Below, piece after piece: positions 1,387 to 48,042 of a DNA stretch of 64,000 nucleotides. The stretch is from positions 2,981 through 66,980 of the forward strand of contig CALXLX010000033.1 in the NCBI GenBank assembly GCA_944389315.1, in the 5' to 3' direction. The notes beneath the pieces were generated by a model. That model did not search any database. It was not told the origin of the DNA and saw nothing but the letters and a program-made list of their open reading frames with translations. The DNA is from an uncultured Opitutales bacterium (GTDB lineage: Bacteria; Verrucomicrobiota; Verrucomicrobiia; Opitutales; Intestinicryptomonadaceae). Position numbers and translations under genes: made by a program. Each line of letters starts with the position of its first letter. Within the stretch, counting starts at the first letter, position 1.

Positions 1387-1460
1387 TGGCCGATGGTGTA
1401 ATGGTAGCACAAAGGTTTCTGGCACCTTTTGTTGGGGTTCGAGTCCCTATCGGCCAACCA
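1387..1460 (+). tRNA. tRNA-Gln (anticodon CUG), CCA encoded
   Basis: Hand-folded 74-nt cloverleaf. Acceptor TGGCCGA/TCGGCCA. D-stem GTGT/GCAC with an AATGGTA loop. Anticodon stem AAGGT/ACCTT with loop TT-CTG-GC. 4-nt variable loop. T-arm TGGGG-TTCGAGT-CCCTA. Discriminator A plus CCA. Confidence 0.9.
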
Positions 1461-1665
1461 TTTTGATGGGGGTTGTTTTTGCGGAAGTTTTTAGAGTCTG
1501 GAATCCGCACAAATCCATTTGAGCAAGCCTTGGGATAATATATTTCCCCGAAAATGTCCGGGGAACATATGCCCGGGAACAAATATATACGGCAAGCTGA
1601 TCGGCGCATATTGCAACGTCAGTTCAAAGTTCAGAGATGCGGGTTAAAATACGCATAAAAGCATG

Positions 1666-1695
1666 TTGACATGTTGTTTTACATGTATTTATAAG
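1666..1695 (+). promoter_or_regulatory. candidate sigma70-type promoter for the glycosyltransferase operon
   Basis: TTGACA (1666-1671), an 18-nt spacer, then TATAAG (1690-1695). It lies about 75 nt upstream of the ATG at 1771. Sequence match only, and this lineage's promoter consensus is unknown. Confidence 0.35.
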
Positions 1696-1770
1696 TTGAG
1701 CACAGTCTGCATAAAGTTACTTTGCCGTTCCGATAATTTCTTAAAAAGATATATAGATAGAGACAATTTA

Positions 1771-2568
1771 ATGGATAACACCCTACAGGATAAAAATATG
1801 TCGGCAGACATTCTGAAAAATCCCCCCGGAGTGTTGAAATACAAGATATTTGTCATAAATCTGGACAGATCCGCAGACAGATTGCTGCAAATGCAGCGGC
1901 AGCTGGAAAACGCAGGATTAGAATTTGAACGGGTTCCGGCGGTAGACGGAAACGCGCTGGACGACGAGAGCATAGGCAGGAACTATTCAAAGGAGCTAAA
2001 TAGGAAAAAGTACTATGTGCCTTTAAAGAAGGCGGAAATAGGCTGTTATATGAGCCATCTGAAGGCCTGTAAAAAAATAGTCGAGAGCGGCTTGGACTAC
2101 GGAATCATCCTTGAAGACGACTTAATCCTAAAGAAAAATTTCCGCCTGCTTCCTGAAATCATAAGGCACATTCCGGCAGACTGGGACTACATAAAACTGA
2201 TTGCCCCGTTCAGGAAGAAAAGGATAACGGGAAGAATTCCAATAGAGATGTTTGAAAACGCCTCAGCCCGCCCGGAGAAGTTTGAACTTGTCAGATGGAA
2301 TAAACCCCCCACCGGGACACAGGCCTACGCGATTAGCCGGAGCGGCGCGGAGGAATTCTTGCGGAGGCGTTCGGTCTTTTTCCGCCCCATAGACGTCGAC
2401 CTGCAGTTCACTTGGGAGACGGGGATAGATGTCGTGGGCTTGGAGCCGCAGCTATGCAAGATTTCAGACGCAGAATCTACAATAGGCGGGAGGAAGTTGA
2501 AACCCCACTATCCGGCAGCCAGGCTAATATACAAACTAAAATACGCGATAAACTCTCTCATCAGATAG
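1771..2568 (+). CDS. glycosyltransferase family 25 (LOS/LPS beta-1,4-galactosyltransferase-like)
   Basis: N-terminus YKIFVINLDRSADRLLQMQRQLENAGLEFERVPAVDG, then EIGCYMSHL and ILEDD, the hallmark GT25 layout. I prefer the ATG at 1771 over the listed 1663, because the extension is Cys/Leu-rich junk overlapping the promoter. Confidence 0.8.
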   Translation: MDNTLQDKNMSADILKNPPGVLKYKIFVINLDRSADRLLQMQRQLENAGLEFERVPAVDGNALDDESIGRNYSKELNRKKYYVPLKKAEIGCYMSHLKACKKIVESGLDYGIILEDDLILKKNFRLLPEIIRHIPADWDYIKLIAPFRKKRITGRIPIEMFENASARPEKFELVRWNKPPTGTQAYAISRSGAEEFLRRRSVFFRPIDVDLQFTWETGIDVVGLEPQLCKISDAESTIGGRKLKPHYPAARLIYKLKYAINSLIR

Positions 2569-2571
2569 CAT

Positions 2572-3366
2572 ATGGGCAGTTTAAAATACAAAATCTTCGT
2601 GATAAACATGCCCGGATCAAAAGAGAGATGGGAGTATGTAAAAACGCAGCTAGACGGCTTCAAAGCAGACTACGAGCGCGTAGAGGGAATAGACGTCTCA
2701 AAACTCTCGGAGGGAGAATTGGACAAATACTATTCCTACTCGAAGAATAGGAAAACTTATCCGAAGCCCCTAACCCGGGGAGAGATAGGCTGCCACATGG
2801 CGCACATAAAGTGTTGGGAGGAGGCCCTGAGGAGGAATCTCGACTTCGCGGTGGTTCTTGAGGACGACATTTCCATAGACGATAGGTTTCCTGAGGCCTT
2901 GAAGTTCTTAGAGTCGCATCCGTCGGGCTGGGATTTCATACGCCTGCAGGCCGAGACGAAGCCGCGGAGGCTGTATTTCAAAGAGGACTTTGGGAGTTTT
3001 TCCATATATGAGTACATAAGGCACTCTGGCTGCACGTGGGGCTATGCTTTAAACTCCAAGGCGGCGAAGACCCTCGTGGAAAGTCTTCTTCCGTTTGGCA
3101 TGACGGCCGACTCTAATATGCACGCGTACTACCGTTTCGGGATAGACGTAAAGACGCTCATTCCGCCAGTCATATTCGCCAGGCCGAACAACGATTCAGA
3201 CATAGAGTGCGCGTCGATGCGCAAAAAGCAGCGGAATTTCTATCCGTTTGCAAGGCAGGTATTTTCCCTGCGGCACTATTTGGGACGCCTTGTCCAGCTC
3301 GCAAAACGCGACGGCACAGGGGTTTTTCTCCGGCGCATTGCCGGATCAAGGAACATTCTAACATAG
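2572..3366 (+). CDS. glycosyltransferase family 25, second paralogue
   Basis: YKIFVINMPGSKERWEYVKTQLDGFKADYERVEGID, EIGCHMAHI and VLEDD. It starts 4 nt after the upstream stop. Confidence 0.8.
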   Translation: MGSLKYKIFVINMPGSKERWEYVKTQLDGFKADYERVEGIDVSKLSEGELDKYYSYSKNRKTYPKPLTRGEIGCHMAHIKCWEEALRRNLDFAVVLEDDISIDDRFPEALKFLESHPSGWDFIRLQAETKPRRLYFKEDFGSFSIYEYIRHSGCTWGYALNSKAAKTLVESLLPFGMTADSNMHAYYRFGIDVKTLIPPVIFARPNNDSDIECASMRKKQRNFYPFARQVFSLRHYLGRLVQLAKRDGTGVFLRRIAGSRNILT

Positions 3367-3375
3367 GAGACTGAA

Positions 3376-4251
3376 ATGGAAAACTTATCCATAGGCATAC
3401 TAACCTGGAAGCGTCTGGACATTCTGAGGCAGACGCTGATTTCATATAGGGACAACGGCCTATTAGACCTGTCCGACGACATCACAATATTCTTCCAAGA
3501 AATGGGAGACGAGGAGGTTGCTCTGGCCAAGGAATTCAACATAAAATATATTGGCGACAAGGACAATGTAGGCATAAAAGAGGCCTACAAGGCTCTTGTC
3601 AACAAGGCGAAACATCCATATTTTATGTTTCTGGAAAACGACTGGTATCTTATAGAGAAAAGCGACGTTGTCAGAAGAAGGATAGAGGCGGGAATATCAA
3701 TACTCGAGAGCGGCAAGGCTGATGTTGTAAGATACAGGCACCGCATTAGGCCGGGATATCCGTGCGGCATAGTAAGGAGAAACAGGCGCAGGCCAGAGCT
3801 CACACCAAAAGATGATTTAGCTTTTGTACCCTCCACGACGGATATTCCCGAAAAGATATTCGACGAGATTTCCGCCACCGAAATACAAGGCGAGAAATAT
3901 TATTTTGTCGGGGCGAAGAACACGTACTGGACGAACAATCCGTGCCTGTTTAAAACGGACTTTGTTAGGGAAATTATGGATAAAGAGGTTAAGACTCTTA
4001 ATCCGGACAGGTTGATTAAGAAATACAATGTCCCATTTAAAAAGATATCCCTTGAGGGTGACTTAGGCAGATACTGGAAAACCACTGACCACGTTACGGC
4101 TTTGTCTCCCGGGCTTTTTATGCATCTCGATTATATCGACGATTTCAAAAAGCACATAAAGTTACCGGAAATATTCTTGAGGATATTGTGCTGGTTTATT
4201 CCCAACGCAAAGTATAGAAAATATCTAAGGGGCAAATATTCCAGAGTTTAA
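3376..4251 (+). CDS. GT-A-fold glycosyltransferase (family unassigned) with a basic amphipathic C-terminal tail
   Basis: AGGAGA RBS at 3365-3370. N-terminus LSIGILTWKRLDILRQTL (Rossmann-like first strand). ENDW stands in place of a DXD motif. C-terminal ...LCWFIPNAKYRKYLRGKY. The family assignment is tentative. Confidence 0.55.
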   Translation: MENLSIGILTWKRLDILRQTLISYRDNGLLDLSDDITIFFQEMGDEEVALAKEFNIKYIGDKDNVGIKEAYKALVNKAKHPYFMFLENDWYLIEKSDVVRRRIEAGISILESGKADVVRYRHRIRPGYPCGIVRRNRRRPELTPKDDLAFVPSTTDIPEKIFDEISATEIQGEKYYFVGAKNTYWTNNPCLFKTDFVREIMDKEVKTLNPDRLIKKYNVPFKKISLEGDLGRYWKTTDHVTALSPGLFMHLDYIDDFKKHIKLPEIFLRILCWFIPNAKYRKYLRGKYSRV

Positions 4252-4895
4252 CATCAGAACGATTCAAAAGCCCAGCACGGAATCGCAAAGACAGGCATTG
4301 CGTAAAAGATGCGCATATCGGCTGCAACAACATTCCGGAAACTGCGCCGCAATTTACACACGCACGCCGCATTGCGATTATCCCATGGGACTAATCGGCA
4401 TGCAAATCCGGCTTTGAGAAGCATTGATTCAAGAGATGTCTTTTTTGAGGGCGCTCGCATAGAAAACATTCTTTTGAACGCATTGCAACTTCTCCATTAA
4501 AGGAAAACTTTGTCTTTTAGCAAAGGCACAAACAGTCAGTTGATGGAATAACTTTCTAAAAGAAAATGTATGGGGATAAGATATGCGGCAGTTACCACAC
4601 TCACTCCCTCCGGGGGGAAAGCAGTCCAGGGAAAACACAAAATCGGAAAAGCTCCAATGGGCACTTGAACCGCCGGATATCCACCTAAACTGCCGCCCTC
4701 ACATAAGGCGCAGGGAATATCTTTTATCTTTACAATTATCGGCAACAAACATAGAAACCCATATTGGAGTTTCTCACCAGAACTCAGGGCCTGCATGGAT
4801 CCCAAGATATTCATAGTAATTTCCGTTTGCAATCCAGAGGAATATCTAAGACCATGTCAGAATTCCGCTCTAATATAGAAAGCTATTGTTAACAT

Positions 4896-5933
4896 ATGTA
4901 TAAGAATACTTTAGAGAAGATATTCTCGATAAAGGGGACAAGATCGCATAAGATCATGACAATTTTAGGGCTAGAGATAAAATATCGTCCCCTTAAAAGG
5001 AAACTGACATATCCATGGGAGACCGGCTGTCCCGCAGAAGAATTTATCCGGATGTACGACTCTCTCTTTTTCTTTAGCCGCATGAGGCTTCCTCGCGAGA
5101 TTACGCTTATAGAATGCGTTGCGCTTCTTGAAGCGGGAGAACGCGACAAGGCCCTTAGCCTTTTGTCATCATACATCAAAAAGCACGGATACAAGGATGT
5201 TGCCTCGTATATGCCGTTGGCTGAGTTATATTGCAAAAGCCAGAATGCAAATCAAGCCGACCTGACAGAGTCGGCTAAGGCGTACGATAGGCTCAAAGAC
5301 AGCAGGAGCAAAGGGCTGTTAAAAGACCTCATATCGGGGAAGAGCGTTGCCATTGTCGGGAACGGGCCGTCTGAGGTAGGATTAGGCCTCGGCGCAGAGA
5401 TAGAATCGCACGATGTAGTGATAAGGTTCAACAATTTCAAGGTTGACGGCTTTGAAGCAGACTACGGATGCAGGACAGACATATGGGTGAAATGCCAGAG
5501 AAACGATGTCGTGCATAGGAAGCTGAAAGACGTTTCCCTCATATTGTACGAACCTGACTGGGACAGGACACCCATATTTGAAGAATACATAAAAGTCATA
5601 CTATCAGACGACGCCCCTGCCGATTTCTTCCGTACAGAGGAGCACTCGCATTTATACGCCGCGCTCAAAAGCTCTCCTTCTACCGGCCTTGTTCTTATAG
5701 ACAATATATTCAAGTATAATCCAAGAGAGGTAGACGTCTACGGATTTCAATTTCTGCAGGAGATACAAGACGGCGTATGCTCCCATTATTTCAAAGACCG
5801 GAACAAGAGCAAGGACATGAGGATAGGTGGGATGCACAATTTAGGAAGGGAATCGGAATACATAACATCTTTCCTATTGGATAAATTCGGGGAAAGCACA
5901 AAAAAGAGGGTGGCTTCTACAGCGCAAAGATAG
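4896..5933 (+). CDS. GT29-like (eukaryotic-type) sialyltransferase homologue with an N-terminal helical extension
   Basis: Motif L-like VAIVGNGPS..GAEIESHDVVIRFNN....GFEADYGCRTD (aa 150-196). Motif S-like PSTGLVLID....VDVYGF (aa 261-284). HYF (aa 297-299). H-NLGR-E (aa 314-319). Confidence 0.7.
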   Translation: MYKNTLEKIFSIKGTRSHKIMTILGLEIKYRPLKRKLTYPWETGCPAEEFIRMYDSLFFFSRMRLPREITLIECVALLEAGERDKALSLLSSYIKKHGYKDVASYMPLAELYCKSQNANQADLTESAKAYDRLKDSRSKGLLKDLISGKSVAIVGNGPSEVGLGLGAEIESHDVVIRFNNFKVDGFEADYGCRTDIWVKCQRNDVVHRKLKDVSLILYEPDWDRTPIFEEYIKVILSDDAPADFFRTEEHSHLYAALKSSPSTGLVLIDNIFKYNPREVDVYGFQFLQEIQDGVCSHYFKDRNKSKDMRIGGMHNLGRESEYITSFLLDKFGESTKKRVASTAQR

Positions 5934-5983
5934 AAGCGGGAAGCCTTAAGAATTTATACATTTCAATACGAATCTGCAGGCAG

Positions 5984-7054
5984 ATGAGTTTAGTAATCAT
6001 TAGCATAATTCTCATATTTATATTTGTCGCGGCAATAATTATTGTGCGGCATAGAAAGAGATACAGGCGCAAAATAGCCATGCTTGAAAGCGAGAATATG
6101 ACGCTGTCTCGAAACTATGCGAGGTTTTGCCCCATATCTAAAAATAAACGCGCATACCTGCTCAACGACACCCGCAGAGAAACAAACCACTGCGGCTGCG
6201 AGCTTGTTAACAGAAACATAGAAATATGCCTGGAGAAAAACGGCATAGATGTGTCGTTTTCAGACTCCACCAATCCAAATTGCGACATTACGGACAAGAA
6301 TGCCTTTGTTTCTATACTCTCGCATATGGATATTCTCATATTAAACGGAGAGGGAACATTGCACGACGATGCGGGAACCCGTCTTCTTGAGAAATGCCTT
6401 TTGGCAAAAGAGCTTGGGATTCCGTGCGTCCTGATAAATTCCGTATGGCAAAACAACAGGATAAACAAAAAATATCTCCATATCTTCGATATTATAGCCG
6501 TCAGGGAATCTCTCTCCCTGCAGGAGTTGCCGCCGGAATATAGGCATAAGGCCTTGTGCGTTCCTGACTTAACAATGCTAAGCAATCCAGACTTGAAATA
6601 TTCGCACGCGGAAAAGCCTTGCACCGTACTGACGGACTCGGTCATAAGAAAAGTCTCCAAGAAGCTGGAAAAATATGCAAAACGCCACAAATATAAATTC
6701 TGGACGATGAATCCGAGGAACGGAAACATCTTCGTTACGGAGGAAAAGATAGCGTCCCTGGCGCGAGATTCCATGGTAATAACAGGCAGATTTCACGTCG
6801 CTACATTATGCATAAAATACGGAATCCCTTTCCTGGCTATAGAATCAAACACGCATAAAATAAGCGGTTTATTGAAGGATTCCAACCTGGATTTCTGCCT
6901 GATAAATTCAGTAGATGAGATAGACAATGCCATTGCGCGTTTCGACAAGGACAAATTCCATAAAAACGCATCAATATATACAAACGCCGCCAACAGCAAA
7001 ATAGACTCGCTATTCTCAGGCATAAGACGCCTCATTGCTAAAGGCGTCAACTGA
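5984..7054 (+). CDS. polysaccharide pyruvyl transferase family protein with an N-terminal transmembrane helix
   Basis: N-terminal hydrophobic helix SLVIISIILIFIFVAAIIIV. ILILNGEGTLHDD...IPCVLINSVW and ...MVITGRFHVATLCIKYGIPFLAIESNTHKISGL match the CsaB/WcaK-type pyruvyl transferase core. Confidence 0.65.
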   Translation: MSLVIISIILIFIFVAAIIIVRHRKRYRRKIAMLESENMTLSRNYARFCPISKNKRAYLLNDTRRETNHCGCELVNRNIEICLEKNGIDVSFSDSTNPNCDITDKNAFVSILSHMDILILNGEGTLHDDAGTRLLEKCLLAKELGIPCVLINSVWQNNRINKKYLHIFDIIAVRESLSLQELPPEYRHKALCVPDLTMLSNPDLKYSHAEKPCTVLTDSVIRKVSKKLEKYAKRHKYKFWTMNPRNGNIFVTEEKIASLARDSMVITGRFHVATLCIKYGIPFLAIESNTHKISGLLKDSNLDFCLINSVDEIDNAIARFDKDKFHKNASIYTNAANSKIDSLFSGIRRLIAKGVN

Positions 7055-7327
7055 GGCGCTTTTGCCTGCATATAAAACACACTAAGTGGAGAAAATCTCC
7101 CTTCTAAAATTTAAGGTCCAACGGCTTGCATTGCGACACAGGATCCGCAGAGTTTACTTTTTGTTCAAATTAGGATTGAAAACATTCCGAGAATCCTAAA
7201 AAAATTTTCATCGAGGAAAATATCTTAAAGCAAAGAATCTACCATAAAAAAATATGCAGTATATCTATTTGCGCTCACGTTATCTCTGCTGGCTCCAAAA
7301 CTTATTGCGAGTTTCGACGGGCTAAAT

Positions 7328-8400
7328 ATGAATATGGGAACCCTTTCCCTGCTCTCCGACGCAAAATCGCGCTCCATAAGCCCGGAAAACATAACCGGCG
7401 AAAAAGGCGGGGCAGCAACGGCGGACCCGTCTAAGGAAGTCCGCAACATCTCAAATGCAGCCCATGCGGCAAAAGAGCTCGGAAAGGGCTGGAAGGTGAA
7501 TCCGTTTCTAAAAATCTCCGCGGGGGGGAGACTATTACAATAGCAGAAATTAACGGCTCAGGAGCAATACAGCAGATATGGATGACGCCGACGGGCAACT
7601 GGAGGACGACTATTATCCGCATATATTGGGACGGCGAGGAAACGCCCTCTGTCGAGTGCCCGGTGGGAGACTTCTTCTGCAGCGCGTACAATAGCTACGC
7701 GCAACTGTCGTCGCTTGCAGTGTGCGTCAACCCGGGCAGCGCATTCAACTGCTACTGGAAAATGCCATTCCGCAAAAGCGCAAAAATAACCATGCAAAAT
7801 ATGGGAAATAAGGAGATGCGCCTGTACTACCAGATAAATTATGTGCTGGCAGAAGTCGGAGACGACGAAGCCTATTTCCACGCGCAATACAGGCAAAGCA
7901 AACCCACAAACGGCGGCATACATACTATTCTGGACGGCGTAAAAGGGAAAGGCCACTATGTGGGGACATACTTTGCTTGGCGCGTCAACAACACCGGCTG
8001 GTGGGGAGAGGGCGAGGTGAAATTCTACATGGACGGCGACAACCAGTTCCCGACTATATGCGGCACCGGCCTTGAGGACTACATCTGCGGCTCGTACAAT
8101 TTTGATGTCGGTAGAAAGTACGTTACGTTTTCAACCCCATATTCGGGCCTTACACAGGCAATCTGCCCGAAAGACACGTACGGCGGAGGGTCGAAATTTG
8201 GAATGTACCGCTGGCATATAACAGATCCCGTGAGGTTCGATTCAGACCTTAAAGTCGACGTGCAAGACTTGGGCTGGCGCGACGGCGGAAGGTACAACAT
8301 ACAAAAATCCAACATCTCCACCGTGGCATTCTGGTATCAGAGGGAGCCCCACGACCCCTTCCCCGCCCTTCCAAAAGCGGAAGACCTTGTCATGGAATAA
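7328..8400 (+). pseudogene. DUF2961 / GH172-family glycoside hydrolase, reading frame broken at a G7 homopolymer
   Basis: ORF 7328-7543 (..SRSISPENITGEKGG..GKGWKVNPFLKISAG) and ORF 7582-8400 (..IRIYWDGEETPSVECPVGDFF..) are the two halves of one DUF2961 protein. The second frame reads ..GETITIAEINGSGAIQQIWMTP from 7528 onward. The junction is the G run at 7522-7528. Confidence 0.75.
7522..7528 (+). repeat. G7 homopolymer at the frameshift point of the DUF2961 gene
   Basis: Sequence is cGGGGGGGag. A tract of 8 G (or 5 G) would fuse the two ORFs in frame. Confidence 0.9.
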
Positions 8401-40991: not shown

Positions 40992-42866
40992 ATGAGAAAC
41001 AAACTTACAATAGTTCTTCTTCTGCTGAATATTATCGTCTTTGGCGCAATATGGATGCTAGAGCGCTCGCCGCGCCAGAAGGCGGCCGCCGCGAGCCCCA
41101 TGGCCGACTTTACCATGCTGCAAGTCGAGGGCAAGAGCCTGGATTCCCCGCGCCTGATACGCCGCGAGAACAACCGCTGGCGCATAGTAAAGCCCATATC
41201 CTGGCCGGCGAATTTCTTCGCGGTAAACAGGATAAAAAGCCAGCTGGAATATCTGGACGGGCAGACGAGCTTTCCGGTTTCGGAGATAGAGTCCCACGGG
41301 CAGACTTTGGCGGACTACGGCCTCGACGCGCCAAACTTCATATTCAAGTTCGGGGACGACAAAAAGACCACGACGCTCAAGGTCGGCAAGGCAACCCCCA
41401 TAGGGAACAGGATATACATGCTCGACGAGGCCCTCGGCAGGATAATCGTCGTGGACAGGGAGCTTGTTGAGAGCCTCGCGATAGACATAGACCGCCTGCG
41501 TTCGCAGAACGTCTTTGAGATACCGAGGTTTGAGGTCGGGACAATCTCGATAAGAATACCGCGGCACGGGTCGGCGGAGTCGTCGGCATCGAGGTTCCTT
41601 CGCATAGGGCTAGTAAAGGACGGCCCGAGATGGAAGTTTGAATCCCCCGTCGCGGCCGAAGCCAACAACAAGGCAGTGGAGGCTTTCATAAGCTCGCTGT
41701 GCGCGCTGTCGGCCAAGTCTTTTGTGTCGGACGGCAAGGCGGTTGCAGATCTGGACATAGGAGCCTTTCCCCTCTCGATAACCCTGCAGGGCGTAAACCG
41801 CAGGCAGACGCTGCTGGTGGGCTCGCCAGTGCCCGATTCAGACCTGGTGTACGCAAAGTTGGAGGATAACCCCACGGTGTTTACTCTCGACGCCGGAGCA
41901 TTTAAGAACCTCGAGTCGCTAAAGACCTCTCTGAGGGACAGGAAGTTCATGAGATTCGACACCCCATCAATATCCGGGGTTGATATAGAATCGGGGAAAT
42001 CCTCCGTCAAGATAAGGAGCCTCAAAGACGGGAAGTGGGAGCTGTTGGGTTCGGGAGGCAACATTCCCGCGGACTCCGTGAAAATGACGGAACTTCTGGG
42101 AACGCTGTCCAACCTATCGGCGATAGATTTCGCCTCAGACAACTCAAAGGCGGATTTCAAATCCTACGGGCTGGACAACCCCGTCCTTAAGATAACGCTG
42201 TCCTTCGACGACAAGACTGAGAAGGCCCTGCTGATCGGCTCAACATACAAATACGGGGCGGCCTCCTTGGCGTATGCGGCTTTGGAGGGAGGCTCGAACG
42301 TATACGGAATTCCCGTCGGCATAATAAAGGAGTTCCCGGCAACTCCGCTGGACTACCGCTCAAGAATAATAAACGCCCTGCCCGAGAAGGCGGAGATAAG
42401 GGGAATAAAGCTGACCTACCTTGAAAACGCGCAGACGGTATTTGAATTGACCGCAAAGCCTGGCTCCAATTTGGCCGCGCAAATCGCGGAAATTTCGGAC
42501 AAGAGGAAACGTTCGGCGGCACAGACCATAGCCGGATACGGCAGGAATTTTGTCGCGCAAAAGTTCGAGGACTGCGCGTTTGCTGCCGACGGATTCAAAA
42601 ACGCCAAGGGGGAATTTGTTAAATGGCATTGGGTTCTCGAGATTACCGCGAGCCTTCCCGGAACGGGAAAGACCATAAACCAGACCTACAAATACTATCT
42701 CGCCGACCGCAGCGGAGGAACCGAACAGTTCGGCGGATTTGAGGATTGCCCGAATGTGTTCAACATTCCCCAGAAACTCATCAACGCCTTATTTGAATTT
42801 GAAACGGAAGTAATCGAAAAGGCGAAAGCGGCTCCGGCGCCGAAGAAGCCCGAAGAAAATAAGTGA
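40992..42866 (+). CDS. DUF4340 domain protein (N-terminal TM anchor)
   Basis: TM LTIVLLLLNIIVFGAIWML. ..WRIVKPISWPANFFAVNRIKSQL..LADYGLDAPNFIFKFGD..LKVGKATPIGNRIYM.. is the DUF4340 pattern that usually follows gldG-like genes. Confidence 0.65.
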   Translation: MRNKLTIVLLLLNIIVFGAIWMLERSPRQKAAAASPMADFTMLQVEGKSLDSPRLIRRENNRWRIVKPISWPANFFAVNRIKSQLEYLDGQTSFPVSEIESHGQTLADYGLDAPNFIFKFGDDKKTTTLKVGKATPIGNRIYMLDEALGRIIVVDRELVESLAIDIDRLRSQNVFEIPRFEVGTISIRIPRHGSAESSASRFLRIGLVKDGPRWKFESPVAAEANNKAVEAFISSLCALSAKSFVSDGKAVADLDIGAFPLSITLQGVNRRQTLLVGSPVPDSDLVYAKLEDNPTVFTLDAGAFKNLESLKTSLRDRKFMRFDTPSISGVDIESGKSSVKIRSLKDGKWELLGSGGNIPADSVKMTELLGTLSNLSAIDFASDNSKADFKSYGLDNPVLKITLSFDDKTEKALLIGSTYKYGAASLAYAALEGGSNVYGIPVGIIKEFPATPLDYRSRIINALPEKAEIRGIKLTYLENAQTVFELTAKPGSNLAAQIAEISDKRKRSAAQTIAGYGRNFVAQKFEDCAFAADGFKNAKGEFVKWHWVLEITASLPGTGKTINQTYKYYLADRSGGTEQFGGFEDCPNVFNIPQKLINALFEFETEVIEKAKAAPAPKKPEENK

Positions 42867-45814
42867 TTTTCAAGGGACAGAGGCATTTTCCGTCGAGGCG
42901 CGGCGGGGTTTTGTCGCGCGCGGCGTCTTGCGCGGCAAATTTGCTTTTGTTTTCAATGCTTGCGATTCAGTCGGGTTGGCTGGCCTTGTATTTCTCGGGC
43001 AAAGACCTGCCGGTGCCCGGGTTTCTGAAGAACTACATATCGGAATACGCCAGCGAAAACGGGTTCGCATTTACGGCCGAACGCGCCTATGTGGGGCTGG
43101 ATGGCAGAATCGTTCTAATAGGCGTATCCGCCGGATTCTTGGACGGCAACAATACCGTCTTCAGGGCCGAACGGCTCGAGATTGGCATAGACATAGCAAA
43201 GTTGGCCAGCGCCACATTCAGGCCTAATCTCCTGCTGCTAAAAAACGCCGCGCTATACGGAGGAAATAACGAGAAGGCGGCGGTCGAGAAAATCAACGCG
43301 CTCATAATCCGGAGACGGGGAAATTTCATTTTAAAAAGGGCGAGCGCCAACATGGGCGCCCTGAAGGTCAGAATGGGCGCGATAGTTCCAAAGAGCTTCG
43401 ATGCGGGCTCCCTGGGGTTTCTCCCTTCCGGCGGCGGGAAAGCCGCGGCGGGGGCGGGCAAAGCGGAGAGCCTGAGCCGCAGATGGGATAGCGCCTGCGA
43501 GAAAATAGCGGGGGCGGCAAATTTGTTCGACGGGTTCGACTCACCCGTGCTGGAGCTTAGCATAGACGCCTCCCCGGACGCCCGAACCTTTGCGGAGGCC
43601 GTCTTCACGGCGGAGAAATACAAAGGGCTTCTAAAAGAAAACCCCGTTGTTCTGTCAAGGCCCCGGGTAGATTTAAAGTTGGACAAACCCGGCGCCGACT
43701 ATGCGAGAGTCGTCATGAGGGTGGAGAAGTTGACAGCCGCAATTCCCGGGGAGAAATTGGAGGTCGGCTGCTCGGAATTCTCCGCGCTGTTGGAGGTGAA
43801 AAGTTTTAAAAAAAGGCTCTCTGCAGGAGGCTTTTCCGCGAGGCAAGCGGCGCTTTCCGCCGACACCCTCAAGGCGTCAAAGCTCGGGATAAAAAACCTA
43901 AGCGCCTCGAAGGACACTCTCTCCGCAGCAGACGCCACGGACGGCTGGCGGATTTTCTTCAGGCACGGCGACGGTTCCTTCGAGGCCGACCTGCGCGGAA
44001 ATTCCGAAAGGCTGCAGGTGCAGTTCGACTCGCGAGCAGACTTCAACGCGCTCATAAGGCATCCTTCGTTATCGCATGTAAAAGAGCTGCGCGGCACAAG
44101 TTTCAACGGGCCCGTGCACATATCCGGCATTTGCGACATATTTCCTCCGCGCGGAGAGGGAAACATGCAGGCGAAAATACGCGCGGACATGTTTGCGCAG
44201 GATTGTTCATTTCTGGGAATACCCGTCGAGGAGATGTCCTCGAAGCTAAGTTTCGACACAGAGGATAAGGTTTTCAGGGCGGATGGAGCCTCCATAAAGA
44301 CGCGCGAAGGCTGGCTCATAGGCGGAGACGTCTTTCAGAACATATCGGACGGCACCTATTCTTTCGCGCTGAAAGGCGGGATAATGCCCATGCGCATAGC
44401 AGGCATCATGGCCCCGTGGTGGACGAGAATATTCAAGACCACGCGCTTTGAAAAATCTGCCCCAGAGGCCGACGTATTTGTGGAGGGAAGATGGGGGCAT
44501 CCGGAATACATCTGGTGTTTTGCAAAAGCGGTCGGGGACGACGTTGAATACGGCGGCAGCCTCTTTAAAAGCTTCTCGGCCTTCGTTCTAGTAAATCCGC
44601 GCCTAATAGCGCTTCTGGACGCCGACATACAAAACGGGGAGAGCCGCGCGAAGTTCGACCTGCAATGGCTCTACGGCAAAAACGGCATAACCCACTTTGA
44701 AAAAAACACCCTAAACGGCAGTTTCGAGCTCACTCAAAGCGAGATAATCTCGCTGGCCGGCAGCGAGGTGGAGGAGATATTCAAGGTAATATCCTTCGCG
44801 GACAGACCCTCCGCGGAGGTCAACGCGCTGCTGTTCAATCCAAAAGACGCAAACGCCCCCGAAGACATGTACGAGGCGCGGATAAACTCCCACGGGAAGA
44901 TGTGCCTCGACGCCGTGGATTTCGACAATGCGTCGTTTTTCGCCTTCGCGCAGGGAGGCCTGATAGACGCCGGGGAGATAGAGGCGCAAACCTGCCACGG
45001 GGAGATTTTCGGCTCGGCAAGGGTTACCGACGTGTACGACAAGGAAAAGGCCTCTTTGCATCTGTCGCTAAACTGCCAGGATTTAAATGTCGGGGAGTTT
45101 CTCGAAACCCTGTCGGATATAGGCAAGACGCCCGAGCAAATACTCGAGGAAAACGCCCAGGACGCGCGGGACAGGCTGAATAATCAAAATGCAAAGGGGG
45201 CAAAAGGCGCCTTCGCCGGAGCGGAAGACGCGAAGCTCTCGGGGAGCATGACTCTTTCAGGGCCGCTGTTCGACCCTTCGGGGCTATCCGGGAACGGGAA
45301 TGCGGTGGTGCAAAGTCCGCAGCTGGGCAAGCTGAACCTTCTCGGGGCAATATCGCGCACGCTCGGCAGGTTCGGGGCGAACATGGGCACATTCGACGTG
45401 ACGGACGCCTCTGCGGAGTGTTCCGTCGGCGAGGGCTCAGTGGAGTTTAAAAACCTCGAGATAACGGGGCCAAAGATAAAGATATCTGGGCTTGCCAACT
45501 ACGAATTTATAAACGGAGACATAAAGGGCAGGCTTTTAATATCGCCGTTCGGCTCCATGGACACGCCCGTGCTCTCGCGCATATTCGCGGCGATAGACCC
45601 CTTCATGAGCGTCTTTGAGGTATTCTTAAGCGGCAAGATAGAAGACCCGGCCATAGGCGTTACGATAAGGCCCCTGAATATATTCAACTCCGAGGAGAAG
45701 CTTCTGGAGTCCTTCGACAAGGAGATGCGCCAGTCTGACGAAGGCAAAGAATCAAACGAGGTGAAGAAGGCCACCCCAGAGGGGGAAAGCTCCGGGGAAA
45801 ATGAAGAAAATTAA
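42863..45814 (+). CDS. AsmA-like / TamB-like large envelope protein (N-terminal TM anchor, acidic C-terminal tail)
   Basis: GTG overlaps the upstream stop (GTGA). TM AANLLLFSMLAIQSGWLALYF. The C-terminal ..FDVTDASAECSVGEGSVEFKNLEITGPKIKISGLANYEFINGDIKGRLLISP...VFLSGKIEDPAIGVTIRP resembles AsmA-family C-terminal domains. Confidence 0.55.
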   Translation: MIFKGQRHFPSRRGGVLSRAASCAANLLLFSMLAIQSGWLALYFSGKDLPVPGFLKNYISEYASENGFAFTAERAYVGLDGRIVLIGVSAGFLDGNNTVFRAERLEIGIDIAKLASATFRPNLLLLKNAALYGGNNEKAAVEKINALIIRRRGNFILKRASANMGALKVRMGAIVPKSFDAGSLGFLPSGGGKAAAGAGKAESLSRRWDSACEKIAGAANLFDGFDSPVLELSIDASPDARTFAEAVFTAEKYKGLLKENPVVLSRPRVDLKLDKPGADYARVVMRVEKLTAAIPGEKLEVGCSEFSALLEVKSFKKRLSAGGFSARQAALSADTLKASKLGIKNLSASKDTLSAADATDGWRIFFRHGDGSFEADLRGNSERLQVQFDSRADFNALIRHPSLSHVKELRGTSFNGPVHISGICDIFPPRGEGNMQAKIRADMFAQDCSFLGIPVEEMSSKLSFDTEDKVFRADGASIKTREGWLIGGDVFQNISDGTYSFALKGGIMPMRIAGIMAPWWTRIFKTTRFEKSAPEADVFVEGRWGHPEYIWCFAKAVGDDVEYGGSLFKSFSAFVLVNPRLIALLDADIQNGESRAKFDLQWLYGKNGITHFEKNTLNGSFELTQSEIISLAGSEVEEIFKVISFADRPSAEVNALLFNPKDANAPEDMYEARINSHGKMCLDAVDFDNASFFAFAQGGLIDAGEIEAQTCHGEIFGSARVTDVYDKEKASLHLSLNCQDLNVGEFLETLSDIGKTPEQILEENAQDARDRLNNQNAKGAKGAFAGAEDAKLSGSMTLSGPLFDPSGLSGNGNAVVQSPQLGKLNLLGAISRTLGRFGANMGTFDVTDASAECSVGEGSVEFKNLEITGPKIKISGLANYEFINGDIKGRLLISPFGSMDTPVLSRIFAAIDPFMSVFEVFLSGKIEDPAIGVTIRPLNIFNSEEKLLESFDKEMRQSDEGKESNEVKKATPEGESSGENEEN

Positions 45815-45929
45815 CCTGCATGCGCCGCGCGCAGGCCGAAGCCGGAGACCGGCCAAACGCCAAAAAAACGCCTGACATGGAAGAATTTTGTATTTGTAAA
45901 ATGGGTTTAAAGAGGCAATCCTATAGACA

Positions 45930-46868
45930 ATGAAAAACGGCAAACTTTTGTGCGCGGTTGCGGGAGTCGGCTATTTGGGCGAGCACCACGCGAGAATCTA
46001 TTCCGAGCTGGAGCATACGGAGCTGGTCGGCGTATTCGACCCCAACAGGCCGCGCGCCGAACAGATAGCGGCAAAATTCGGCTGCAGGGTGTTCGACTCT
46101 CTCGAGCAGCTGGGAGAAGCCGCAGAGGCCGTGAGCGTGGTGGTTCCCACGGACAAGCACGCGCAGGTGGCCGTACCGCTGCTTAGGCAAAACTGCCATC
46201 TGCTTGTGGAAAAGCCCTTCTGCACCACAACGGAGGAGGCCGAGGAGATGATTTCCGAGGCAAAGAAGCGCAACCTTATAATACAAGTCGGGCACATAGA
46301 GCATTTCAATCCGGCGATGGGCTTCATGGAGGAGCACGTGAAGAATCCGAAATTTATCACCGCGGACCGCCTTGCGCCCTTCAACCCGCGCGGGACCGAA
46401 GTGGGCGTCGTGCTCGACTTGATGATACACGACATAGGAATAGTCCTCAAGCTTGCCGCATCTCCCGTAAAGAGGATAGAGGCTGTGGGCGTAAACGTCA
46501 TAAGCAGCCGGGAGGACATAGGCAACGCGCGAATAGTTTTCGAAAACGGGTGCGTGGCAAATCTCAATGTAAGCCGCGTCAGCCTGAAGAAGCTCAGGGA
46601 GATAAGGATATTCCAGCCCGGCGGATACATGTCCTTGGATTTGATGAACCAAAGCGGCCACGTTGTAAAGATAGTCGACGGGGCGGTCGAGAGAATAGAA
46701 GTTCCCATGCAAAAGCAGGAGCCGCTGAAGATAGAGCTTGGAAGCTTCGCCGACTGCGTGATGAACCACCACGACCCGAAGGTGGACGCAAGGCTCGGCC
46801 TGCGCGCGCTGGAAGTCGCCCTTGAGATAACGCGGCAGATACGCGCTATGATGAACGATGCCAAGTAG
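45930..46868 (+). CDS. Gfo/Idh/MocA family oxidoreductase, possible UDP-GlcNAc 3-dehydrogenase (GnnA-like)
   Basis: Rossmann CAVAGVGYLGEHHARIY and the EKP motif (LLVEKPFC). About 312 aa. The 3' end overlaps the lpxB start by 11 nt. The GnnA assignment rests on context only. Confidence 0.6.
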   Translation: MKNGKLLCAVAGVGYLGEHHARIYSELEHTELVGVFDPNRPRAEQIAAKFGCRVFDSLEQLGEAAEAVSVVVPTDKHAQVAVPLLRQNCHLLVEKPFCTTTEEAEEMISEAKKRNLIIQVGHIEHFNPAMGFMEEHVKNPKFITADRLAPFNPRGTEVGVVLDLMIHDIGIVLKLAASPVKRIEAVGVNVISSREDIGNARIVFENGCVANLNVSRVSLKKLREIRIFQPGGYMSLDLMNQSGHVVKIVDGAVERIEVPMQKQEPLKIELGSFADCVMNHHDPKVDARLGLRALEVALEITRQIRAMMNDAK

Positions 46869-48042
46869 CAGCTCCATACCGCGTTCTTTTGCGCCACCGA
46901 AAGACGGGGCCTGCGATATTCTGCTGATAGCCGGAGAGCACTCTGGAGACCAGCAGGCCGCAAGAATGTTGCGCGCCCTGTCCAAGGAGGACAACACAAA
47001 GCGGGTGTGCGCATTCGGAGGCAGGGAGATGGAAGCGGCCGGGGCGCAGCTTTTGTTCGACATGACGGGATTTTCCGTAGTCGGGCTTTTCGAGGTTTTG
47101 AAGAATTACGGATTTTTCAAGGTCTTGGCGGAGAGAATCGTCGGCTGGATAGAAAAGTACAGGCCCAAAACCGTGTGTTTTGTGGATTATCCGGGCTTCA
47201 ACCTGCATCTTGCGGGCCTGTTGAAGAAGCGGGGCATAAGCATAAAAGGCGGTGGAAACGTCAGGGCGATATATTATATAAGCCCTCAAATCTGGGCGTG
47301 GAAGGCCGGCAGGCGCTTTAAAATGGCCGAGCTTCTGGACTCCCTTGCAGTGATATTTCCCTTTGAGACGGCCTGCTATGCTGACACTTCCCTAAAGGCG
47401 GAGTTTGTCGGCCACCCCTTTCTCGATCCCGGGCATGTCTCTCCCGTGGAGTACGACGCATCCTCCCCGCTGCTCTTTCTTCCCGGAAGCCGCAAGGCCG
47501 CAGTGGGAAGGATATTTCCCATAATGCTTAAGACTCTGCGCCTGCTCGGCAAAGAGAAGGCGCTAGTGCCCTACCCGAGCCAGACCATAAAGGCGGTTCT
47601 CGAGAAAATTCTCAAAAAGTTTCCGGACTTGAAATACAGGGTTAGCCTGCTGGACGATACAAGCTCCTTCCCCCTAAGGGCGAAAGCCGCCCTGATGAGC
47701 TCGGGAACCATGTCTTTAAATTGCGCCCTCGCGGGGATTCCCGCGGCGATAGTCTACAAGGCGAACATATTTACATATCTTGCGGCGCGCCCGATAGTGA
47801 GCATATCGTATCTTGGCATATCCAACATACTTTTGAACGGGTCCTCCCTGCTAGAGTACATACAGTTTGCCGCAAGGCCGGCTGTTTTGGCAAAGCGCAT
47901 GCGCTATTGCATGGACAACCCCAAAGCGCGCGCCGAAGCCCTTGCCGACGCAAATGAGCTAAAGCGCATACTTTCCGCTCCCAACAAGACAGGCGCCGCA
48001 GGCTGGCTTCTAAAAAACGCAAACGCGGCTTTGCCGAGGTAG
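46858..48042 (+). CDS. lpxB: lipid-A-disaccharide synthase
   Basis: ILLIAGEHSGDQQAARMLRAL, ..VDYPGFNLHLA.., ..YYISPQIWAWKAGR.. and ..LSGTMSLNCALAGIPAAIVYK.. Confidence 0.9.
   Translation: MPSSSSIPRSFAPPKDGACDILLIAGEHSGDQQAARMLRALSKEDNTKRVCAFGGREMEAAGAQLLFDMTGFSVVGLFEVLKNYGFFKVLAERIVGWIEKYRPKTVCFVDYPGFNLHLAGLLKKRGISIKGGGNVRAIYYISPQIWAWKAGRRFKMAELLDSLAVIFPFETACYADTSLKAEFVGHPFLDPGHVSPVEYDASSPLLFLPGSRKAAVGRIFPIMLKTLRLLGKEKALVPYPSQTIKAVLEKILKKFPDLKYRVSLLDDTSSFPLRAKAALMSSGTMSLNCALAGIPAAIVYKANIFTYLAARPIVSISYLGISNILLNGSSLLEYIQFAARPAVLAKRMRYCMDNPKARAEALADANELKRILSAPNKTGAAGWLLKNANAALPR

Follow-up and report, generated by a model that had tools for sequence, protein, structure and literature searches.

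The gene described here raises the question of how a protein with the four motifs of animal sialyltransferases comes to be encoded in a bacterial genome, to which glycosyltransferase family it belongs, and which sugar it might transfer to which acceptor. It lies in a stretch of 64,000 nucleotides, all of which was analysed and which we refer to as the window; its features are collected in Table 1. An earlier note on this DNA had reported an open reading frame carrying strings that resemble sialylmotifs L, S, III and VS, and translation bears this out with every string at the residues given, a combination far beyond chance. We propose that the product is a soluble bacterial GT29 enzyme that would transfer a CMP-activated acidic sugar to a glycan acceptor and so form an acidic surface cap, a reading to which we assign a probability of roughly three in four.

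Table 1. Coordinates of the GT29 gene, its motifs and its neighbours in the window.
Feature	Coordinates	Strand	Evidence and remarks
tRNA-Gln(CTG)	1387..1460	+	left edge of low-GC island; ARAGORN; Rfam tRNA 60.1 bits
GT25 gene, LgtB/Lic2A/LpsA-type family	1663..2568	+	PF01755, 106.7 bits
Second GT25 gene	2572..3366	+	PF01755, 108.2 bits
291-aa protein, probable divergent GT-A (GT2-like) glycosyltransferase	3376..4251	+	PF00535 sub-threshold: 18.1 bits, E 0.0028, aa 5-89
GT2 gene remnant, 27 codons	4795..4878	+	directly upstream of GT29 start; MDPKIFIVISVCNPEEYLRPCQNSALI*
GT29 (sialyltransferase-like) gene, bacterial type	4896..5933	+	345 aa, ATG start; ORF and translation, PF00777, AF2 model, fold matches
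N-terminal region of GT29 protein	4896..5333	+	aa 1-146: strands at aa 10-30 form a small sheet of three, followed by a helical subdomain resembling TPR/PPR at aa 33-146; DSSP of model
Sialylmotif L	5343..5483	+	aa 150-196, SVAIVGNGPSEVGLGLGAEIESHDVVIRFNNFKVDGFEADYGCRTDI; expected to bind the CMP-sugar, by homology
Sialylmotif S	5676..5747	+	aa 261-284, PSTGLVLIDNIFKYNPREVDVYGF
Sialylmotif III	5778..5792	+	aa 295-299, CSHYF; HY aligned with HYW of pig ST3Gal-I
Sialylmotif VS	5835..5852	+	aa 314-319, HNLGRE (H-x4-E); aligned with VHDGDFE of pig ST3Gal-I
Polysaccharide pyruvyltransferase-family gene	5984..7054	+	51 bp downstream of GT29; PF04230, 51.7 bits

Membership of family GT29

The protein matches the Pfam profile PF00777 (Glyco_transf_29) with 61.7 bits (E 9.5e-17), against a curated gathering threshold of 23 bits. 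The earlier note had proposed scoring profiles of other families in competition. At a cut-off as lenient as E ≤ 10, PF00777 proves to be the sole glycosyltransferase family found in Pfam, and the models for GT42, GT52, GT80 and GT38 give no match; NCBIfam contains no model matching this protein or any glycosyltransferase of the surrounding gene island. A profile built from 37 homologues finds pig ST3Gal-I (2wml/2wnb) with an E-value of 2.7e-21, aligning the whole catalytic domain and bringing all four sialylmotifs into register.

An AF2 model of the protein (pLDDT 91, pTM 0.87) predicts one Rossmann-like domain of the GT29 type, GT52, GT80 and GT38 being families with GT-B folds. Ranks 1 to 30 of a Foldseek search with this model are all occupied by animal ST3Gal1, ST6GalNAc2, ST6Gal1 or ST8Sia3, with E-values from 8.5e-7 to 1.2e-3 and modest TM-scores of 0.36-0.52 (normalised by target length, and with a predicted structure as query). 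The GT-A variant 2 sialyltransferase fold that the earlier note anticipated is thus present in the predicted structure. A member of another family that merely mimics the sialylmotifs, be it GT42 (CstII-like), GT52, GT80, GT38 or Maf/MptE-like (DUF115), is very improbable: GT42 and DUF115 do belong to the same broad fold class, and M. jannaschii MptE/HPPK follows the GT29 matches in Foldseek (E 0.005-0.03), but the GT29 structures score about four orders of magnitude better than MptE, and no Pfam model for these families, including PF01973, is matched at E ≤ 10. The C. jejuni GT42 enzymes CstI and CstII are likewise bacterial, cytoplasmic, single-domain sialyltransferases of GT-A-variant type, but no chain of either appears in PDB sequence searches or among the best 50 fold matches.

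A search of genome contigs with an alignment (A1) recovered 74 bacterial loci with relatives, from many phyla; an earlier search of genome contigs, for which this protein alone served as query, had recovered none, and the species' own copy was found among GTDB representative genomes by neither the single-protein nor the alignment search. The window protein shares 30-43% identity with homologues from many phyla of bacteria, 72% with a metagenomic homologue and 15-21% with animal enzymes. The gene is also present in a second assembly, with DNA that is 99.4% identical and three amino acid changes, none of them in the motifs, and it is intact in both. MAGs in which the island is found include GCA_949285065.1 (contig CASDXB010000013.1). 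The protein is a member of the bacterial branch of GT29, and the earlier note's reading of it as a genuine GT29-fold enzyme in a bacterium is supported, each of its proposed checks that could be run having come out in its favour.

Conserved residues, topology and known GT29 proteins

The residues invariant in the 37 homologues are V154, G155, N156, G166, I169, V175, R177, N179, G191, G264, G283, F284, H314 and E319. Motif L therefore contains an invariant VGN and an invariant V-x-R-x-N, together with a nearly invariant HD, and motif S opens with the nearly invariant P261, followed by G264, and closes with Y282 (nearly invariant), G283 and F284. His314 of motif VS is the presumed catalytic base, a role taken from established knowledge of GT29 enzymes. 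The sole D-x-D triplet, DWD at residue 221, lies outside the conserved columns.

The cysteines that form a disulfide between motifs L and S in animal enzymes had been reported missing, and this holds: Ser150 occupies the motif-L position and Arg/Glu the motif-S position of pig ST3Gal-I, the latter region reading HICDEVDLYGF in the pig enzyme and YNPREVDVYGF in the window protein, with no Cys before VDVYGF. There is no transmembrane segment (the highest Kyte-Doolittle 19-residue window scores 0.94), and the polar N-terminus is modelled as strands and helices, with no signal anchor or stem. The protein is presumably soluble and cytoplasmic, as previously suggested, a location that fits the absence of both the transmembrane segment and the L/S cysteines.

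The extra N-terminal helical region of about 145 residues noted earlier is seen in the model, where three short strands precede helices 33-146. Residues 71-121 give a weak match to TPR_19 and also match designed PPR repeats. Because most homologue alignments begin at about residue 65, helices 67-146 are part of the conserved module, and an N-terminal motif, IFS-x-K...HK-x-x-T-x-LG, is conserved in the closest subfamily.

The window protein shares with animal GT29 enzymes (pig ST3Gal-I, human ST6Gal1, ST6GalNAc2 and ST8Sia3) the Pfam family, the order of the motifs, the predicted fold and the motif-VS His, but it differs in having neither signal anchor, stem nor L-S disulfide and in its additional N-terminal helical subdomain; the animal enzymes reside in the Golgi lumen, whereas the window protein is presumably cytoplasmic. 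A closer precedent is provided by Petit et al. 2018 (Sci Rep 8:2946, PMC5811610), who described 23 bacterial GT29 sequences, chiefly of alpha-, gamma- or epsilon-proteobacterial origin, with four sialylmotifs but neither transmembrane segments nor L/S cysteines, treated GT42 as the nearest outgroup of GT29, and proposed bacterial GT29 as the source of all eukaryotic sialyltransferases. The window protein has the features of this bacterial GT29 sialyltransferase-like group: the four sialylmotifs, a bacterial host, and no transmembrane segment or L/S cysteines. The novelty claimed in the earlier note was thus overrated, and the protein is a further member of an already described group, modest as a discovery. 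Compared by description, it differs from the published set in coming from the metagenome-assembled genome (MAG) of an Opitutales-like Verrucomicrobiota gut bacterium, and its subgroup in having a conserved N-terminal strand-plus-helical region.

Recent transfer from an animal host or another eukaryote, or eukaryotic contamination of the assembly, might be suspected of a family first defined in animals and of a gene in a low-GC island beside a tRNA gene; yet the protein is much less similar to animal enzymes than to bacterial and metagenomic homologues, it groups within the bacterial sequences across a long branch from pig ST3Gal-I in a neighbour-joining tree (computed without support values), it lacks the transmembrane segment, stem and cysteines of the animal proteins, and its flanking genes are bacterial in two assemblies. 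We therefore regard such an origin as scarcely credible.

A low-GC glycosyltransferase island in an Opitutales-like host

Between about 1500 and 7500 the GC content is 0.41-0.50, as compared to approximately 0.55 in the rest of the window, and this segment contains, beside the tRNA-Gln gene, two GT25 genes, the GT2-like gene, the GT2 remnant, the GT29 gene and the pyruvyltransferase gene, in that order. Both GT25 neighbours named in the earlier note are confirmed by their PF01755 matches. The first of these may start further in, the same gene being called as 256 and 265 aa in loci L001 and L081. The 291-aa protein probably is a divergent GT-A (GT2-like) glycosyltransferase, judging from its sub-threshold profile match, and it has no match among PDB sequences. 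The 3' end of a homologue of this protein is located upstream of a GT2-GT29 pair in locus L078, in which the GT2 gene is intact and the GT29 product is 72% identical to that of the window; the GT2 remnant in the window has 54% identity to the first 26 residues of this intact GT2 (tblastn E 5e-6). In a GH172 gene near the island the start codon is altered and 2 bp are inserted, so that the gene is broken.

The truncated GT2 gene adjoining GT29 upstream and the broken GH172 gene nearby would be compatible with an island in decay, of which GT29 itself might be a degraded or inactive remnant, but the GT29 reading frame is full length, every family-invariant residue is retained, and the gene is intact in two assemblies that differ by three substitutions, all outside the motifs. 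A relic is accordingly improbable.

Homologues of the pyruvyltransferase gene adjoin GT29 on the same strand in four loci (L011, L047, L068 and L072), and in L074 one is situated 21 bp from a second GT29 copy; the pair is thus present in five other loci, which belong to two distant GT29 clades. Three GT25 genes together with GT29 are also found in a Mesorhizobium MAG. The island contains no flippase, polymerase or initiating transferase gene, and it therefore resembles a lipooligosaccharide (LOS), outer-core-type or similar decoration cassette. A search for the boundary of an integrated island, in the form of an att-like direct repeat matching the end of tRNA-Gln, yielded only short repeats at chance level, an Rfam scan of the whole window reported tRNA only, and promoter and terminator scans of the island gave nothing usefully above shuffled expectation.

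Other genes in the window encode LpxB, LptD and an OEP, and its RuvB shares 77-80% identity with the RuvB proteins of Opitutales MAGs. The tRNA, RuvB, LpxB and LptD genes show the host to be bacterial, with RuvB closest to Opitutales, and the presence of LpxB, LptD and OEP indicates that it makes LPS. On these sequence grounds we place the host among the Verrucomicrobiota, as an Opitutales-like diderm of the gut. Since it has LpxB and LptD, CMP-Kdo should be available in the host without extra genes.

In the LOS loci of Neisseria and Haemophilus, the GT25 galactosyltransferases LgtB/LgtE/Lic2A are accompanied by Lst (GT52) or Lic3A (GT42), and where GT25 genes accompany a sialyltransferase but not Wzx/Wzy, one expects an oligosaccharide ending in Gal to be extended step by step and given an acidic cap. 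At the level of gene content the island is similar, with GT25 genes beside a sialyltransferase-type enzyme and no Wzx/Wzy genes, but it differs in that the capping enzyme would be a GT29 rather than a GT52 or GT42 protein, and in including a pyruvyltransferase.

Candidate donors, acceptor and product

To gain insight into the donor we surveyed the neighbourhoods of 75 distinct GT29 loci. A nonulosonate-type CMP-sugar synthetase (CTP_transf_3 cytidylyltransferase) lies within about 5 kb of GT29 in 16 of the 75, directly abutting or overlapping a GT29 gene in L021, L027, L030, L042 and L061, and in ten loci a NeuB-family synthase is encoded no more than about 6 kb away. In the Microbacterium and Lentisphaerae loci L036 and L027, GT29 is the immediate neighbour of genes for a NeuB-like synthase and a CMP-synthetase. 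PseF-type nonulosonate models give the linked cytidylyltransferases their highest scores, KdsB models lower ones, and the linked synthases score highest against NeuB_NnaB, in all cases below the curated cut-offs; half of the cytidylyltransferases are fused to a Kdn-9-P/KdsC-type phosphatase domain. This linkage of GT29 to synthetase and NeuB-like genes supports a CMP-nonulosonic acid donor for the family.

The immediate relatives present a different picture. Neither neuA/neuB/neuC, kdsB nor any other CMP-sugar gene is present within the 64-kb window, and the 20 loci whose GT29 most resembles that of the window likewise have no such gene within 10 kb; the closest homologues (P0009, P0022, P0002 and P0003) are surrounded by GT2, Glf, LicD and methyltransferase genes, with no donor genes around them. 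The donor of the window clade thus draws no support from local context. We did not adopt a donor specific to this clade, as the donor-linked loci are interspersed with it in the neighbour-joining tree, which carries no support values.

Our leading candidate for the donor is a sialic-acid-type CMP-nonulosonic acid (Neu5Ac or Kdn), although we hold the case for it to be evenly balanced. CMP-Kdo is a less probable but serious contender, by which a GT29-fold enzyme would add non-core Kdo to LOS, O-antigen or capsule: its supply is implied by host LpxB and LptD, nonulosonate genes are missing both from the window and from the surroundings of the 20 closest homologues, and GT29 has been cited as transferring ulosonic acids such as Kdo for the K6 capsule locus of E. 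coli and for the synthesis of RG-II in plants. However, all GT29 enzymes with a solved structure and known activity use CMP-sialic acids, the linked cytidylyltransferases belong to the nonulosonate (PseF/NeuA-like) type and not to that of KdsB, often with a NeuB-like synthase, and nonulosonate-linked loci are intermingled with the window clade. Some other donor altogether is less likely still. The GT29-GT107 capsule protein of E. coli K6 is predicted to synthesize poly-Kdo, and a role as Kdo transferases has been proposed for the GT29 candidates in plant RG-II synthesis; these are likewise non-animal GT29 domains proposed to use CMP-activated ulosonic acids, although the K6 protein, compared by description, is a fusion with GT107 whereas the window GT29 is stand-alone.

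By homology, the protein would act as a metal-independent, inverting transferase in which motifs L and S bind a CMP-activated 2-keto-3-deoxy acidic sugar and His314 serves as the general base for transfer of the sugar to a hydroxyl of the acceptor glycan. The most likely acceptor would be a galactose-containing oligosaccharide assembled at the inner membrane face by the two GT25 enzymes and the GT2-like enzyme, and also modified by the adjacent pyruvyltransferase. The product would be an acidic surface cap in this LPS-making gut bacterium, and a host-like sialylated or Kdo-capped glycan, as the earlier note suggested, is plausible. A more specific version, in which GT29, GT25 and pyruvyltransferase build a host-like acidic LOS cap with sialic acid or Kdn on galactose in a mucus-associated member of the Verrucomicrobiota, is doubtful; such a cap might be combined with pyruvylated galactose, and the bacterium might obtain the sialic acid for it by scavenging from its host.

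No enzyme assay of any bacterial GT29 was found in the literature. The window GT29 is small, presumably soluble and modelled with confidence, and it has no L/S disulfide pair, so that it should be easy to express and to employ as a biocatalyst. The gut Verrucomicrobiota setting and the adjoining GT25 galactosyltransferases make mimicry of host glycans a testable idea. Were the host-like LOS cap to prove correct, no bacterial GT29 sialyltransferase would have been defined biochemically before this one, the recurrent pairing of GT29 with pyruvyltransferase would represent a new conserved glycan-capping module, and the proposed bacterial origin of eukaryotic sialyltransferases would gain an experimental footing. 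The neighbourhood survey yields donor hypotheses for the whole bacterial GT29 branch; it also shows that UDP-galactopyranose mutase genes are frequent, and pyruvyltransferase genes recurrent, beside bacterial GT29.

A GT29 protein with all four sialylmotifs

The open reading frame that the earlier note had assigned to a bacterial protein with the four defining motifs of GT29 sialyltransferases (L, S, III and VS) is present, with 345 codons and an ATG start, and the quoted motif strings lie at residues 150–196, 261–284, 295–299 and 314–319. The product matches Pfam Glyco_transf_29 with 61.7 bits and an E-value of 9.5e-17 (gathering score 23). The sole further Pfam family at E ≤ 10 is TPR, matched weakly in the N-terminal region; the models for GT42, GT52, GT80 and GT38 are all unmatched at that threshold, Glyco_transf_29 being alone among GT families, and NCBIfam gives nothing meaningful. 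A single-sequence search of the PDB finds pig ST3Gal-I at E 2.6e-7, and likewise ST6Gal1, ST6GalNAc2 and ST8Sia3.

Among 5.8 billion proteins, a word-indexed search identified 47 relatives, 46 of which have a precomputed PF00777 match and none a functional name. An alignment of 37 of these was used for motif conservation, profile and model. The cores of motifs L, S and VS are invariant in it: V154, G155, N156, G166, I169, V175, R177, N179 and G191 in the motif L region, and further G264, G283, F284, H314 and E319. The profile aligns with pig ST3Gal-I at E 2.7e-21 over residues 151–341 with the four motifs in register (VAIVGNG against CAVVGNS in motif L, PSTG...VDLYGF in motif S of both, HYF against HYW in motif III, and H-x4-E against VHDGDFE in motif VS). 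The cysteines that form a disulfide between motifs L and S in animal enzymes are missing as had been noted, with Ser150 in motif L and Arg/Glu ahead of VDVYGF in motif S, and the protein lacks any hydrophobic segment (Kyte-Doolittle maximum of 0.94 over 19-residue windows).

An AlphaFold2 model built from the 37-sequence alignment is confident (mean pLDDT 91, pTM 0.87) and has three short strands at residues 10–30, helices at 33–146, and an alternating strand/helix Rossmann-like domain from residue 150 onward. The first 30 Foldseek matches in the PDB are all animal GT29 structures (ST3Gal1, ST6GalNAc2, ST6Gal1 and ST8Sia3; E 8.5e-7 to 1.2e-3), followed by the MptE-like kinase of M. jannaschii at E ~0.005–0.03, and no CstI/CstII (GT42) chain is among the matches listed. 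The protein thus came through the profile and fold comparisons proposed for it, and Pfam match, motif register and predicted fold together support the reading that it is a genuine GT29-fold enzyme.

Filter-free phmmer against 1.84 billion 50%-identity representatives gave 1953 matches at E ≤ 1e-3, of which 485 reached E ≤ 1e-10 and 77 reached E ≤ 1e-30. The alignments mostly start at about query residue 65, and the helices at 67–146 therefore belong to a conserved module rather than to an optional add-on. Bacterial GT29 domains are also fused to GT2, GT4, GT8, DUF4422, Nucleotid_trans and MptE-like domains, in a build like that of multi-domain polysaccharide synthases. Such fusions of 660–1320 aa occur in nine of the genome loci fetched (L007, L008, L020, L022, L024, L026, L036, L056 and L067), and Moraxella nonliquefaciens and Helicobacter ganmani have GT2-GT29 fusions.

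The 23 sialyltransferase-like GT29 sequences that Petit et al. 2018 (Sci Rep 8:2946) described from bacteria, 19 of which were alpha-proteobacterial, have all four sialylmotifs but neither a transmembrane domain nor the motif L/S disulfide cysteines, and the authors proposed a proteobacterial origin for the eukaryotic enzymes. For the family as a whole, the central point of the earlier note and its cysteine observation were thus in print already. The window GT29 is a further, unannotated protein of this group, from a phylum, Verrucomicrobiota, not highlighted before, and its novelty is limited. New here are the composition of the gene island and the conserved helical subdomain, the recurrent pairing of GT29 with pyruvyltransferase and with GT25 across distant clades, and the frequency with which bacterial GT29 genes are linked to NeuB-like, nonulosonate-type CMP-synthetase and Glf genes. 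Full-text searches, in a literature set that leaves out most subscription journals, turned up no biochemically characterised bacterial GT29.

Neighbourhoods of bacterial GT29 genes and the donor sugar

Running the 37-relative alignment against one genome per GTDB species yielded 74 loci, from Melainabacteria, Akkermansia, Thermoguttaceae, Sphingomonas, Clostridia, Spirochaetes, Kiritimatiellia, Lentisphaerae, Actinobacteria (Microbacterium, Cellulosimicrobium, Luteimicrobium), Helicobacter ganmani, Moraxella nonliquefaciens, Halomonas, Shimia, Prosthecomicrobium, Mesorhizobium and others. All ORFs were clustered, cluster representatives annotated, and families counted by locus in the fetched sequence flanking GT29 (up to 10 kb). 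GT2 is found in 18 loci, UDP-galactopyranose mutase (Glf) in 15, the NeuB family in ten, CTP_transf_3 cytidylyltransferases in eight, cytidylyltransferase-HAD phosphatase fusions in eight, and pyruvyltransferases in five besides the window.

The cytidylyltransferase gene is directly contiguous with a GT29 gene, or overlaps it, in L021, L027, L030, L042 and L061. The GT29-linked cytidylyltransferases score best against a PseF-type nonulosonate model, with KdsB models lower, and the synthases best against NeuB_NnaB, all below equivalog cut-offs. For the fused phosphatase domain the matches are to Kdn-9-P and KdsC phosphatases, also below those cut-offs. Where the fused gene lies beside GT29 (L022, L026, L029, L032, L034, L036, L041 and L054, mostly Actinobacteria and MAGs labelled Clostridia, Lachnospiraceae or Selenomonas) a short NeuB-like synthase accompanies it, suggesting that a Kdn-type or Neu5Ac-9-P-type pathway feeds these GT29 enzymes. 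At the family level this linkage supports a CMP-nonulosonic-acid donor.

All major ORFs of the 64-kb window were scanned, and neuA/B/C, kdsB and other ulosonic-acid genes are absent; nor do nonulosonate genes lie nearby in any of the 20 loci that are closest to the window GT29. Loci with and without such genes are interspersed in a neighbour-joining tree, so their absence from the window says little either way. For the window GT29 itself we infer donor sugar, acceptor and biological role, and CMP-Kdo is a serious alternative donor, given that the host makes lipid A, that a GT29-GT107 protein of E. coli K6 is predicted to make poly-Kdo, and that plant GT29 proteins have been proposed as Kdo transferases.

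The loci with Glf within 10 kb are L004, L006, L008, L012, L015, L020, L026, L027, L028, L043, L047, L049, L056, L058 and L076; L078, fetched after this count, also has the gene. Bacterial GT29 enzymes may thus often act in galactofuranose-containing glycans.

A PS_pyruv_trans-family gene and a same-strand adjoining GT29 gene occur in L011, L047, L068, L072, L074 and the window. Outside the window the two genes are immediate neighbours in four of the five loci, and in L074 the pyruvyltransferase adjoins a second GT29 copy. These six loci come from two distant GT29 clades, and all six lack NeuB and cytidylyltransferase genes within 10 kb. In L075, a Mesorhizobium MAG, three GT25 genes adjoin GT29.

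The host and the low-GC island

The window is from a diderm bacterium by its gene content, which includes LptD, LpxB, a TolC-like OEP, ProRS, PrmA, RuvB, IspD/IspF, PyrF and ABC transporters. Its RuvB shares 77–80% identity with proteins whose names refer to Opitutales or Verrucomicrobia MAGs, and 74% with the Ruficoccus protein. The contigs derive from metagenome assemblies of gut type.

Features of the island and other loci in the window
Feature	Position	Strand	Remark
tRNA-Gln(CTG)	1387-1460		left edge of low-GC stretch
GT25	1663-2568	+	
GT25	2572-3366	+	
291-aa protein	3376-4251	+	sub-threshold GT2 match only
Gap	4252-4895		644 bp, between 291-aa gene and GT29
GT2 gene remnant	4795-4878	+	27 codons, inside gap
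GT29	4896-5933	+	
Polysaccharide pyruvyltransferase family	5984-7054	+	
GH172/DUF2961	7244-8400	+	broken
983-aa ORF	42863-45814	+	no Pfam family at thresholds used
380-aa ORF	45921-47063	-	no Pfam family at thresholds used

The GT29 gene lies in a stretch (~1500–7500) with a GC content of 0.41–0.50, against ~0.55 elsewhere, which holds five glycan genes, among them the two neighbouring GT25 genes that had been reported. The lower GC and the tRNA-Gln gene at its edge suggest that the island was acquired horizontally; neither an att-like direct repeat nor an integrase was found at it. The island lacks flippase, polymerase and priming transferase genes, and its arrangement is one that we take to resemble stepwise LOS-type extension loci. 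The island is also in GCA_949285065.1, 99.4% identical over 15.9 kb, where the GT29 protein has three differences, all at non-motif residues.

The GT2 remnant (MDPKIFIVISVCNPEEYLRPCQNSALI, then a stop codon) ends shortly 5' of the GT29 start and shares 54% identity with the N-terminal 26 aa of an intact GT2 on contig L078, whose gene overlaps a 72%-identical GT29 homologue. That contig goes on with a Glf gene, not a pyruvyltransferase, and the locus is thus mosaic. The rest of the gap (4252–4794, ~540 bp) precedes the remnant.

Relative to the intact 384-aa gene of L081 (the GCA_949285065.1 locus), the GH172/DUF2961 gene has its start ATG changed to ATA at 7246 and a 2-bp GG insertion at 7522–7523. 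It is split the same way in L001; either the gene is a pseudogene or the assembly is wrong at a run of Gs. The 380-aa ORF, which may be spurious, lies opposite the LpxB gene and overlaps it. A 27-nt segment of the second GT25 gene (2648–2674) is 85% identical to 5440–5466 of the GT29 gene (repeat family D2), which encodes KVDGFEADYG of motif L; this likeness is probably due to chance.
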